From assembly GCA_041649475.1 (NCBI GenBank), contig JBAZNA010000001.1, positions 197,022 through 261,021 on the forward strand: DNA of 64,000 nt, in the 5' to 3' direction. Of the stretch, positions 26,805 through 57,024 are shown piece by piece. The position numbers were made by a program, and so were the translations under genes. A model generated the notes under the pieces. It had not been told where the DNA came from. It searched no databases and saw nothing but the letters and a program-made list of their open reading frames with translations. The first letter of the stretch is position 1, and each line of letters starts with the position of its first letter. Origin of the DNA: Patescibacteria group bacterium (GTDB lineage: Bacteria > Patescibacteriota > Patescibacteriia > Magasanikbacterales > GWA2-37-8).

Positions 26805-28337
26805 TTATTTTGCGTATTCCACCACTCTGGTTTCACGAATTATGGTTACTCTGATTTCTCCAGGATACTGTAATTCTTGCTCAATTTTACGGGCAATGTC
26901 CTTGGCTAATTGGAAGGCAGAGTAATCATCAATTTCGTTTGGTTTAACGAAGATCCGTATTTCTCGTCCGGCTTGGATGGCATACACCTTTTCAATTCCC
27001 GGGAAGGAGGTGGCTGTTTTCTCCAGTTCTTCCAAGCGAGCGATGAATTGTTCATAACTGTCTTTGCGGGCGCCGATTCTGGCGCCGGAAATTGCATCCG
27101 CGGCTTTGGCAATGCTGGCAAAGATATTGAATGTTTTATCCAGGTGATGAGTCAAAGCTGTTTGGGCAATGTCTTCATCCATATTGAATTTTTTGAGGAT
27201 CATGTTGCCGATTTCCGGGTGAGAGCCCTGGGTTTCCTGATCAACTGATTTGCCGATATCATGAAAGAAGCCGCATTTTTTTGCTCTGGCGGCGTCCAGT
27301 CCAAGTTCGCTCGCAATCAAGGATGACAAATATCCCACTTCCATTGAATGGTTCAAGATGTTTTGTCCGTAACTGGTTCTGTATTTTAAGCGTCCGACAA
27401 TGCCGACCAGTTTTGGATCAATGCCGGTGATACCCATTTTATATAGGGCTTCTTCACCGGCTTTCTTTATATCAATGGCCAAATCCTGTTTGGCTTTTTC
27501 AATAAATTCTTCAATGCGGGCCGGCTGGATTCTGCCGTCGGCCATTAATTTTTCCAAAGCCAGTTTGGCAATTTGGCGTCTGATCGGGGAGAAGCCGGAA
27601 ACCATGATCGCGTCCGGAGTGTCGTCAATGATAAGTTCACAGCCGGTTAGTTTTTCAATGGTTTTAATGTTGCGGCCTTCTTTGCCGATGATGCGCCCCT
27701 TCATTTCCTCGCTGGGCAAGGACACGGTGGTTGAAGTGATTTCAGCCGCGTGCGAAGAGGCACAGCGCTGAATGGCTTCACCGATAATAGTGCGCGCCTT
27801 TTCTTCAAAGACCTCGCCGGATTCTTTTTCCAGTTTCATGATGCGGGCGGCCAAATCATTTTTACTTTCCTCTTCCACCCTAACTAAGAGTTCGGTCTTG
27901 GCTTCGTCTCTGGTCAGTCCGGCAATGCCCTGCAGTTTTTCAATTTCCTGATCGCGCATTTTTTCCAAATCCTGCTTGATTTGCTGGACTTTTTCCACTT
28001 TTTCCTGGAGTTTTTGCTGTTTGTCCTGGAATTCTAAAAGTTTCTGGTCAAACATATTTTCACGTTTTTCCAGACGCTGTTGCACGCTGTGCAATTCCTG
28101 GCGCAATTGTTTTTCTTCCCGTTTGGCTTCATCAATTATCTGCGCGCCTTTTTCTTTGGCTTGCAGGATGAATTCCTGCTGTTTGGTCTTGGCTTCGTTT
28201 AAAAGCTTTTCGGCTTTGGCTTCAATAGAGTTGGCCTGGGCCTGGGCTATTTTTTTACGTAAAATATACCCCAGCAAGAAGGCTATACCGACGCCGACCA
28301 GGGTGATGATCGCCCAGGTAAAATTAGTTAAATGCAT
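26805..28337 (-). CDS. rny: ribonuclease Y
   Basis: N-terminal TM helix, a long coiled coil, a KH domain (GRIIGKEGRNIK) and an HD domain (GFFHDIGK). Confidence 0.9.
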   Translation of the reverse strand: MHLTNFTWAIITLVGVGIAFLLGYILRKKIAQAQANSIEAKAEKLLNEAKTKQQEFILQAKEKGAQIIDEAKREEKQLRQELHSVQQRLEKRENMFDQKLLEFQDKQQKLQEKVEKVQQIKQDLEKMRDQEIEKLQGIAGLTRDEAKTELLVRVEEESKNDLAARIMKLEKESGEVFEEKARTIIGEAIQRCASSHAAEITSTTVSLPSEEMKGRIIGKEGRNIKTIEKLTGCELIIDDTPDAIMVSGFSPIRRQIAKLALEKLMADGRIQPARIEEFIEKAKQDLAIDIKKAGEEALYKMGITGIDPKLVGIVGRLKYRTSYGQNILNHSMEVGYLSSLIASELGLDAARAKKCGFFHDIGKSVDQETQGSHPEIGNMILKKFNMDEDIAQTALTHHLDKTFNIFASIAKAADAISGARIGARKDSYEQFIARLEELEKTATSFPGIEKVYAIQAGREIRIFVKPNEIDDYSAFQLAKDIARKIEQELQYPGEIRVTIIRETRVVEYAK

Positions 28338-28556
28338 AAAAACCTCAAGATTTTGAGGGCGTTATTCAATTGAAGAAGAGTAGCTTTAGATAAGCACAAA
28401 AACACCGGTCAAATCCATCTGATTTGCCCCGGAAAAGTGTTTGTTTAGGTGTTTATTTAGCATAAAGTTGACAATTCGGTTCGGTCTTAACTCTGCGAGT
28501 CAGCTTTCTTCTTAACTATTTAGAATAACGACTCAAAAATCAATTAATTATTTAGT
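28338..28556 (-). promoter_or_regulatory. about 215-nt structured leader or sRNA between a strong promoter and a terminator hairpin abutting the rny ATG
   Basis: On the minus strand the hairpin cctcaa-aatc-ttgagg plus UUUUU ends directly at the ATG. Its 3' arm contains the only SD-like GAGG. The 5' segment tttttgagtcgttattc can pair alternatively with gaataacgccctcaaaa. Confidence 0.45.
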
Positions 28557-28562
28557 GACTCT

Positions 28563-28591
28563 ACTATAGCACTAAAGAGGTGTTTTGTCAA
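28563..28591 (-). promoter_or_regulatory. strong promoter TTGACA-N17-TATAGT (extended TGc)
   Basis: rc reads ttgacaaaacacctctttagtgctatagt. This is identical to the rnpB promoter at 26 of 29 positions. Confidence 0.65.
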
Positions 28592-28797
28592 TTGTTTCTG
28601 CCTTTGCCCCAGATTTTCCATTCCCAGACCCCTCTGTTTTCTTTTGGTTCTTCCGGCGAATTTTCACGTCTTTCTTCCTCAATGATAGGCATTTCCTCAT
28701 CATATATTCTTGGCCTCTCTTTTTCTCTCTCTTGCTCTTCGCGTCTCCTTATCTCTTCAATAATTAAATCATCCAGCGGACTAAGTTTTTTAGCCAT
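28588..28797 (-). CDS. small highly charged hypothetical protein (69 aa)
   Basis: E/R/K-rich ORF starting 4 nt after the truB stop. No known motif. Confidence 0.4.
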   Translation of the reverse strand: MAKKLSPLDDLIIEEIRRREEQEREKERPRIYDEEMPIIEEERRENSPEEPKENRGVWEWKIWGKGRNN

Positions 28798-56565: not shown

Positions 56566-56594
56566 TTGACAAAACCCCTCATTTGTGCTATAGT
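56566..56594 (+). promoter_or_regulatory. rnpB promoter (TTGACA-N17-TATAGT, extended TGc)
   Basis: ttgaca aaacccctcatttgtgc tatagt. The -10 ends 7 nt before the P1 stem. Confidence 0.65.
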
Positions 56595-56600
56595 TAACCC

Positions 56601-56994
56601 ATTCATAGCGGATGATCGAGCCGACTTAGTCGGCTAGGAAAGTCCGAACACCCAAGATGGCAGTGGGTAACGCCCACCGCTACGGTGGCAACGCCGTGGT
56701 TGGGAAAGTGGCACAGAGACAATTCTAACCCCGACAAGCTCGGGGTAAAAGGTGAAAAGTGTATGGGGGATTTGGTTCTCGAGACCAAAGCTACTATACT
56801 CGGCTGATAGCAATATCAGTTCGTGCTAAACCCTGCCTGGTGCAAGAGCAGCGTTTCGCGGCGCAAAACCGCGGTTCGAAAAGTTCGCTCGCTAGAACGC
56901 GTTAGCAATAACGCGTCCAGATAAATGATCGTCACCTCGCCCCATTTTTAAACAAAATGGTGCGGAGCACAAAATTCGGCTTATAGCTATGAAT
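56601..56994 (+). ncRNA. rnpB: RNase P RNA (bacterial type A)
   Basis: P1 pairing attcatagc/gctatgaat. P4 strands GGAAAGTCCGAACAC and ACAAAATTCGGCTTAT. Also GGGTAACGCCCAC, GGGAAAGTGGCACAGAGA and AGATAAATGATCG. Confidence 0.9.
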
Positions 56995-57024
56995 AAAAAA
57001 GACGACCCGCAAGGGCCGTCTTTT
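56995..57024. terminator. bidirectional intrinsic terminator
   Basis: aaaaaa gacgaccc-gcaa-gggccgtc tttt, between rnpB (+) and the convergent 57040..58578 gene (-). Confidence 0.75.

Follow-up and report, generated by a model that had tools for sequence, protein, structure and literature searches.

To our knowledge, control over the level of a nuclease that initiates mRNA decay has been described in only a few model organisms, namely through the RNase E leader of Escherichia coli and the self-cleavage of rny mRNA in Bacillus subtilis. The leader of rne (Rfam rne5 and rne-II) and the autoregulatory leaders of rnc and pnp are structured RNAs that set the levels of decay nucleases. They carry hairpins recognized by proteins or RNases and act on mRNA stability or translation, and neither a terminator switch nor an upstream open reading frame (uORF) is known in them.

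The B. subtilis rny leader is the closest system with respect to the gene it precedes. In the published account of this system, RNase Y regulates its own message: it cuts a 164-nt 5′ UTR, chiefly within the A/U-rich 5′-terminal 50 nt, and thereby creates entry sites for RNase J1 (PMC10303841). [quoted passage not shown] The preferred sites of RNase Y are given as UA-rich single strands flanked by structure; the word “terminator” does not occur in the text, and the leader is not known to contain a uORF (PMC10303841).

With respect to architecture, the closest systems are the leaders of trp, his, pheA, and especially enterobacterial pyrBI. These combine (i) a strong promoter, (ii) a short leader ORF, (iii) a terminator directly before the gene, (iv) a mutually exclusive antiterminator, and (v) a hairpin with a U-run inside the leader that may act as a synchronizing pause.

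The rny leader of the Patescibacteria genome discussed here, found in a 64-kb stretch of DNA (the window), shares features with both groups. Like its B. subtilis counterpart, it is long and A/U-rich and precedes the same gene, but it carries a terminator/antiterminator switch and a uORF and has no SD sequence. All five features of the trp, his, pheA, and pyrBI leaders recur in it, with six differences. Those leaders regulate biosynthetic operons, whereas this one precedes a ribonuclease gene; its ORF has no runs of regulatory codons; its antiterminator pairs the extreme 5′ end with a terminator arm ~165 nt downstream rather than with an adjacent segment; a helix that pairs the start of the ORF with its stop encloses the entire uORF; the host lacks SD-led initiation; and there is no kinship in sequence or in Rfam. 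The leader shares a purpose, and not a mechanism, with the rny leader of B. subtilis and the rne leader of E. coli.

Promoter and 5′ end of the leader

The leader is preceded by a sigma-70-type promoter, TTGACAAAACACCTCTTTAGTGCTATAGT, on the minus strand at 28563..28591. It consists of a −35 hexamer TTGACA (28591..28586), a 17-nt spacer, and an extended −10 element TGCTATAGT (28571..28563). The initial annotation of this locus, made from the sequence of the window, described the promoter as a near-copy of the rnpB promoter, and the likeness stands. The two are identical at 26 of 29 positions, the second lying on the plus strand at 56566..56594, directly 5′ of the RNase P RNA that Rfam matches at 56600..56999. 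These are the only two matches to the promoter string in the window, while none are expected on the basis of 100 shuffles. In L081, L094, and L096, the nearest relatives, the leader promoters again contain the motif AAAAC.CC... in their spacers, so the likeness of the twin promoters may stem from membership in one class of strong promoters rather than from recent copying.

The predicted transcription start site (TSS), taken to lie 7 nt past the −10 element, is at ~28556. The resulting RNA would measure ~219 nt (28556..28338, minus strand), in good agreement with the promoter-to-terminator structured RNA of ~215 nt that the initial annotation had placed directly before rny. It would open with a single-stranded 5′ segment, ACUAAAUAAUUAAUU (28542..28556, minus strand), for which two alignments of relatives give a family consensus of roughly UUAAnUAAUUAAnnG. 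These first ~15 nt are A/U-rich and conserved, and the last of them, which adjoins the first helix of the leader (P1), is a G that hardly ever varies.

Distribution of the element

A query with the RNase Y protein yielded 80 loci from genomes, taken as one genome per species, and 80 more from metagenome contigs. Elements were found at 69 of the former and 48 of the latter, giving 117 in total and 98 after removal of redundancy. All 69 genome loci and all 48 metagenome loci that yield the element have a promoter of the form TTGACA-N16-18-(TG)nTAnnnT located 165–390 nt 5′ of rny. Every Magasanikbacteria-type rny locus with upstream sequence, in which RNase Y is ~58–87% identical to that of the window, carries the promoter and terminator module, and the hairpin with its U-run sits at the rny-proximal end of the interval between promoter and rny. 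Genome loci of other lineages, with RNase Y proteins of 38–48% identity, mostly lack the promoter; L079 has the promoter and no terminator. The carriers are Patescibacteria of the Magasanikbacteria type, a group of ultra-small bacteria, and the many records titled “uncultured Gammaproteobacteria” among them are probably mislabelled.

A blastn comparison of the window leader with the 80 related loci returned almost no match. The leader DNA has diverged past the reach of blastn, and the family is therefore recognizable only by position, motifs, and structure. Even the nearest relative, with an RNase Y that is 87% identical, has a leader of only 65% identity, and the interior of the element is highly variable in both length and sequence. 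A profile HMM detects exactly one copy of the element per locus and no second copy elsewhere in the 64 kb.

The element had been called uncharacterised in the initial annotation, and the database comparisons are consistent with this description. No family of Rfam 15 matches it at gathering thresholds, at E ≤ 10 on the region, or at E ≤ 1 on nine whole relatives. Accordingly, 6S RNA, T-box, known riboswitch, and ribosomal-protein leader classes were rejected as assignments for lack of an Rfam match, and leaders of the rne5/rne-II type gave no match in the scans of the window, the region, and the nine relatives. In the literature searched, no rny leader is described as containing a uORF, and RNA elements of Magasanikbacteria are not treated at all.

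Terminator T2 and the apparent dependence of rny on the leader promoter

The regulated gene, rny, occupies 26805..28337 on the minus strand, with its ATG at 28337, and encodes an RNase Y of 510 amino acids (TIGR03319, 600 bits; cutoff 454), the main mRNA-decay nuclease of the cell. Directly upstream lies the terminator T2 (28338..28358, minus strand), composed of the hairpin CCUCAA-AAUC-UUGAGG (28358..28343) and the run UUUUU (28342..28338), the final U of which adjoins the rny AUG, just as the initial annotation had it.

The U-run of T2 lies at most 12 nt from the rny start in 52/67 loci. In 14/67, a small insert of 30–190 nt, often palindromic, separates the two, and the hairpin with its U-run is still kept. 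A promoter search between T2 and rny in these 14 loci gave best scores of at most 11, as compared to 12–15 for the leader promoters. Since the hairpin and U-run persist despite the inserts, and the inserts offer no good promoter, T2 appears to behave as a terminator and not just as a fold that surrounds the start codon. The hairpin is weak in some members of the family (−2.5 to −4 kcal/mol).

It thus appears that rny is transcribed by polymerases that start at the leader promoter and read through T2. The initial annotation had offered a cis-regulatory leader and an independent sRNA as two options; no other promoter for rny was found, which favors the cis-regulatory reading over a free-standing sRNA.

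Alternative folds of the leader

The minimum-free-energy (MFE) fold of the window leader is a rod in which the 5′ segment is paired to the segment containing the 5′ arm of T2 (−46 kcal/mol, z = −2.3). Within it, GATTTTTGAGTCGTTATTC (28541..28523) pairs with GAATAACGCCCTCAAAATC (28367..28349), which is the complementarity noted in the initial annotation. A z of −2.3 for a single-sequence fold is weak evidence, hence the comparison with relatives.

The rod is built from three helices, all on the minus strand. P1 joins the antiterminator strand GAUUUUUGAGUCGUUAUUC (28523..28541) to the region of the T2 5′ arm; on the basis of folding and duplex energy tests, its 3′ strand, GAAUAACGCCCUCAAAAUC (28349..28367), includes both the 5′ arm and the loop of T2. 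P2 joins a purine-rich strand (28503..28515), with the core AAGAAGA at 28513..28507, to UCUUCUU (28373..28379), whose first base lies 9 nt downstream of that of the uORF stop codon; the helix corresponds to helix 3 of the clade alignment, with 90% of cells paired. P3 (helices 4–5 of the same alignment) joins an A-rich strand spanning uORF codons 4–9 (28437..28454) to the U-run UGUUUUUGUGCUUA (28391..28404), which directly follows an internal hairpin and lies just before the uORF stop codon. This internal hairpin, CCGGGGCAAAUC-AGAUG-GAUUUGACCGG (28405..28432, −11.7 kcal/mol), is located inside the uORF and is followed in the window by UGUUUUUGUG; hairpin and U-run together look like a pause site or a terminator within the uORF. 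The internal stem-loop that had been proposed for the leader is also present, at 28454..28391.

For the clade of the window (11 sequences), RNAalifold selects P1, P2 (AAGAAGA/UCUUCUU), and P3 around the internal hairpin. In the clade alignment, 84% of cells are paired, as compared to 47–60% when the 3′ partners are slid, and ten pairs are altered on both sides, a count reached in 4 of 500 shuffles. On family-wide MAFFT alignments RNAalifold returns no structure, which is attributed to misalignment of the interior; MAFFT leaves even the T2 pairs out of register. Family-wide covariation was therefore assessed by energy tests in place of a curated alignment or covariance model, and the covariation seen by RNAalifold pertains to the clade of the window only.

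These tests point to a conserved antiterminator. When the first 75 nt are paired against the 3′ region, the most stable duplex includes positions of the T2 5′ arm in 65 of 67 non-redundant elements, with a median energy of −25 kcal/mol. Cognate P1 strands pair with −16.8 kcal/mol versus −9.9 kcal/mol for non-cognate ones (Mann-Whitney p = 2e-24), and the cognate partner ranks within the top 10% among distant members in 49/67. The antiterminator/terminator arrangement suggested in the initial annotation is thus conserved and covaries in the homologous rny leaders. Full-length MFE folds contain the antiterminator in 60/67 elements, and the penalty for imposing the terminator has a median of 3.4 kcal/mol across the family and amounts to 0.6 kcal/mol in the window. 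Such near-isoenergetic folds are, as modeled, the signature of a switch and not of a fixed structure.

P3 pairs the region that starts at the uORF AUG with a segment across the stop codon (median −10 to +13 relative to the stop), and its pairing is lineage-specific (−11.8 vs −8.9 kcal/mol, p = 7e-9). Two further helices were considered and rejected. A candidate “P2b” would pair the 25 nt preceding the AUG with sequence beyond the stop; it is convincing in several close relatives, yet family-wide its energies are −9.0 vs −8.6 kcal/mol (p = 0.26). A local 5′ hairpin, “P0”, that would sequester the 5′ strand of P1 occurs in many prefix folds and is too inconsistent to be claimed.

A conserved short open reading frame inside the leader

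The interior of the leader contains a conserved open frame (28386..28463, minus strand) that starts at an AUG at 28463..28461 in the context UUUAUG, comprises 25 codons (MLNKHLNKHFSGANQMDLTGVFVLI), and ends with UAA at 28388..28386. Neither the AUG nor the frame formed part of the initial annotation. In the family, the AUG lies ~100 nt after the −10 element in the context (A/U)(A/U)UUAUG, and TATG is invariant within the clade of the window.

The frame was evaluated by selecting a start codon irrespective of the sequence that follows it. In 69 of the 98 non-redundant elements, (A/U)UAUG occurs at 55–145 nt, and the occurrence nearest to position 100 was taken. The chosen AUG opens at least 17 codons in 65/69 elements (median 24, 10th–90th percentile 19–30), as compared to 31% for other ATGs in other frames of the same elements, although these lengths are inflated by the P3 strands, which are first A/C-rich and then U/G-rich and disfavor stop codons in all frames. 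Across the family, the uORF is 17–34 codons long.

The coding signature of the frame appears modest. Among close relatives, synonymous changes account for 34% in the uORF frame and 16–22% in the other frames (independent pairs, p = 0.02), with much of this signal coming from one clade. The codon-level test is sensitive to the choice of pairs, in that p = 5e-5 for nine hand-picked pairs and p = 0.02–0.04 for greedily chosen independent pairs from more loci. The peptides are poorly conserved between clades, and exact look-up of eight of them in a protein collection found none. They show no single-codon runs and are unremarkable in composition, which leaves no amino-acid-specific signal. Nor are they hydrophobic: one of 78 has a 15-amino-acid window with a mean Kyte-Doolittle hydropathy of at least 1.8, and the mean GRAVY is 0.03.

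Small ORFs locked into an mRNA with paired 5′ and 3′ ends and a sequestered start region are characteristic of hok-type type I toxin mRNAs. The rny leader differs from these in its non-hydrophobic peptides, its fixed synteny with a housekeeping gene, and its lack of any sign of mobility. A type I toxin mRNA was rejected on the basis of the single peptide in 78 with a transmembrane-like window.

The absence of an SD sequence before the uORF is no objection to its translation because the genome barely uses such sites. Only 5/43 long ORFs of the window have an SD-like motif, and genuine gene starts share the A/U-rich start context of the uORF. The host genome thus appears essentially SD-less, and an absent anti-SD has been reported for part of the Parcubacteria (PMC9297842). 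The same count bears on the GAGG in the 3′ arm of T2, which the initial annotation had singled out as the only SD-like string. It is indeed the only one, but it does not hold up as a ribosome-binding site for rny, and sequestration of an SD by the T2 hairpin is not supported as a mode of regulation.

The uORF stop codon lies upstream of the 3′ strand of P2/P1 by a median of 20 nt and upstream of the T2 arm by 53 nt. In about half of the elements, a ribosome terminating there would be too far away to cover the P2/P1 3′ strand directly.

Proposed mechanism

With the conserved AUG and uORF taken into account, a leader-peptide attenuator becomes the likeliest mechanism, in place of a plain RNA or an autoregulatory leader. 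Four features of attenuators can be read from the sequence: a leader promoter with no further promoter between leader and rny, a terminator before rny, a mutually exclusive antiterminator kept in relatives, and a conserved, suitably placed short ORF. The clustered regulatory codons for one amino acid that distinguish the trp/his/leu subclass are absent. If the leader is an attenuator, it is of the general, coupling-sensing type exemplified by pyrBI and not an amino acid sensor.

The rny leader is therefore proposed to be a bistable, ribosome-dependent transcription attenuator that controls RNase Y, with a probability of roughly 0.5. Parts of this proposal differ in strength. It is very probable that the switch exists and acts in cis on rny. 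That translation of the uORF is the signal has a chance slightly short of even, and the polarity of the response to translation is more tentative than that. Sequence analysis predicts the TSS, termination at T2, and uORF translation.

According to the proposal, the strong promoter would start a ~220-nt RNA with two alternative folds. In one, T2 would form as a local hairpin with its U-run and halt RNA polymerase one base before the rny AUG. In the other, a long rod would form in which P1, assisted by P2 and P3, takes up the 5′ arm and loop of T2, and in the absence of T2 rny would be transcribed. The uORF AUG would be free only until the 3′ strand of P3 is made, ~75 nt later. A ribosome that loads before that strand is transcribed would keep P3 open and would finish next to or on the 3′ strand of P2 while the polymerase makes T2. 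Positioned there, it would block the inside-out zipping from P3 through P2 to P1, such that T2 forms and transcription stops. With no ribosome, P3, P2, and P1 would zip in the order of their transcription, and the polymerase would read into rny. Synthesis of RNase Y would then rise at low translation initiation capacity. A tentative and rather doubtful extension of this scheme is that the leader serves as a sensor of free translation-initiation capacity, with the race between ribosome loading and P3 closure deciding transcription of rny. Once released, the ~220-nt rod RNA may also act in trans, as may its peptide.

Alternative explanations

The main rival is an autoregulatory leader, on which RNase Y, another RNase, or an RNA-binding protein would act and in which the uORF would be only a secondary or stability modulator. 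We consider it rather unlikely, and an autoregulatory layer is compatible with attenuation and may coexist with it. The self-cleavage described for the rny leader of B. subtilis provides a precedent, and the A/U-rich 5′ tail ending in G at the foot of P1 fits the preference of RNase Y given there (PMC10303841). One conceivable route is a cut in the A/U-rich 5′ segment near P1, upon which the 5′ strand of P1 would be lost, T2 would re-form by the rny AUG, and the mRNA would be open to a 5′ exonuclease; because the switch is near-isoenergetic, the loss of one strand would flip it. However, autoregulation leaves unexplained why the AUG is invariant and followed by a conserved open frame of narrow length range, and why a terminator with a U-run is kept even 30–190 nt from the rny AUG.

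Alternatively, the unit may be a stand-alone gene for a dual-function RNA, that is, an sRNA encoding a peptide of ~25 amino acids and ending in a constitutive terminator, with the rod conferring stability and rny expressed by passive leakage. The near-consensus promoter resembles that of the stable RNA rnpB, the unit spans exactly from promoter to terminator, the rod with its paired ends resembles stable RNAs, the uORF has a weak coding signature, and released attenuator RNAs and leader peptides are reported to act in trans in other bacteria (rnTrpL and peTrpL). This explanation is nonetheless improbable. It does not account for the strict synteny with rny across very divergent sequences with no copy elsewhere, and it would leave an essential-type gene, rny, without a separate promoter. 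A constitutive terminator would not be expected to face a stronger, covarying, competing helix in 60/67 elements, and the peptides are poorly conserved between clades and absent from protein collections.

The terminator/antiterminator pair could also be the expression platform of a riboswitch, or of a leader that senses a ligand, tRNA, or protein, with an effector stabilizing the rod or an alternative 5′ fold and the ORF being incidental. Many riboswitches use such a platform, and the blocks GAUCUUUGAG, AAGAAGA, and UCUUCUU are conserved. The conserved nucleotides, however, fall in helix strands and the AUG and not in junctions or loops, while length and sequence of the interior vary widely. 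The gene for RNase Y has no metabolic function that would point to a ligand, and even when E values of up to 10 are admitted, Rfam 15 yields no match among riboswitch, T-box, and leader families; we regard a sensor of this kind as highly improbable. Least probable is a 6S-like RNA, a binder of RNA polymerase that shares its transcript with the following gene, as proteobacterial ssrS does with ygfA: the ~200-nt rod with paired ends, a large irregular interior, and a strong promoter would suit it, whereas the conserved AUG and ORF and a terminator that competes with the closing stem are not 6S features, its position is locked to rny, and no Rfam 6S match is found in the region (E up to 10) or in nine relatives (E up to 1).

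Implications

The rny leaders of the Magasanikbacteria type constitute a well-supported element family suitable for deposit in Rfam. Outside the Firmicutes, they would be the first candidate for an element that regulates RNase Y, and they would be among the very few cis-regulatory RNAs defined for bacteria of the Candidate Phyla Radiation (CPR). The leader is compact and bistable and exists in ~100 natural variants, which makes it experimentally tractable.

On the proposed reading, uORF-type attenuation would extend beyond biosynthetic operons. The leader looks like an undescribed sensor that ties production of RNase Y to translation; if this is true, it would be an attenuator linking the capacity for mRNA decay to translation in hosts whose initiation does without SD pairing, and it would close a homeostatic loop through which SD-less CPR bacteria with reduced genomes adjust mRNA turnover to the supply of available ribosomes.

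Promoter and 5′ End of the Leader

The leader promoter (28563..28591, minus strand) has the spacer pattern AAAAC.CC...TTTnGTG, which recurs in front of the leader in the nearest relatives (rny loci L081, L094, and L096). The promoter of the window's RNase P RNA gene, rnpB (56566..56594, plus strand), shares this pattern, a hint that these promoters form a subclass whose spacer is constrained. The −35 hexamer of the leader promoter also contains the TGA stop codon of a small ORF that lies between this promoter and truB (28588..28797, minus strand). Its highly acidic, 69-aa product is an exact match to MFA5061735.1 at NCBI, which is listed as a hypothetical protein of a Patescibacteria MAG, and has no NCBIfam match. 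Comparable small acidic ORFs seem to end just upstream of the leader promoter in relatives.

The extreme 5′ end of the predicted transcript, directly before P1 (the helix that pairs the 5′ segment with the terminator 5′ arm), is occupied by the near-palindromic, A/U-rich motif UUAAUUAAUU (28542..28556, minus strand). The motif is conserved at equivalent positions in relatives, and in both the window and the relatives it is directly followed by a nearly invariant G. Its role could lie in RNase entry or in protein recognition, or it could act as an operator at the DNA level.

Related Loci and the Region Around rny

In 14 of the 67 loci compared, a small insert of 30–190 nt with inverted-repeat ends (for example, TATAATCGAAGTGAGTG...CGAGCGAACGAGATTATA) separates the leader terminator from the rny start codon; these loci include L003, L016, L063, and L030 as well as L047, L039, L012, L013, and L020. 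The inserts resemble miniature repeats or hairpin elements, and none was found to contain a strong promoter. A Magasanikbacteria-type rny (75–83% identical) accompanied by the leader also occurs in many MAG records that bear the title “uncultured Gammaproteobacteria” (the sources of L006, L007, L011–L014, L016, L017, and others); these assemblies are probably mislabelled taxonomically. Within the rny coding sequence itself, a truncated, weak Rfam match to DUF805b RNA (28200..28223, minus strand; E = 0.0047) scores 19.8 bits, where the gathering score is 35.6, and is most likely due to chance.

Translation Initiation and the uORF Hairpin

Across the whole window, an SD-like motif lies within 18 nt of the start in only 5 of the 43 long ORFs (150 aa or more), whose start contexts are A/U-rich. 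Initiation in this genome appears to proceed without Shine–Dalgarno pairing, in agreement with a report that some of the Parcubacteria have lost the anti-SD (PMC9297842).

The uORF, a 25-codon frame in the leader, contains an internal hairpin (−11.7 kcal/mol) with UGUUUUUGUG directly 3′ of it (together 28395..28432, minus strand). Roughly a quarter of the relatives have a similar pair of hairpin and U-run. In the window, the arrangement resembles a pause site or weak terminator, and a transcript that ended at this point would not include the stop codon of the uORF.
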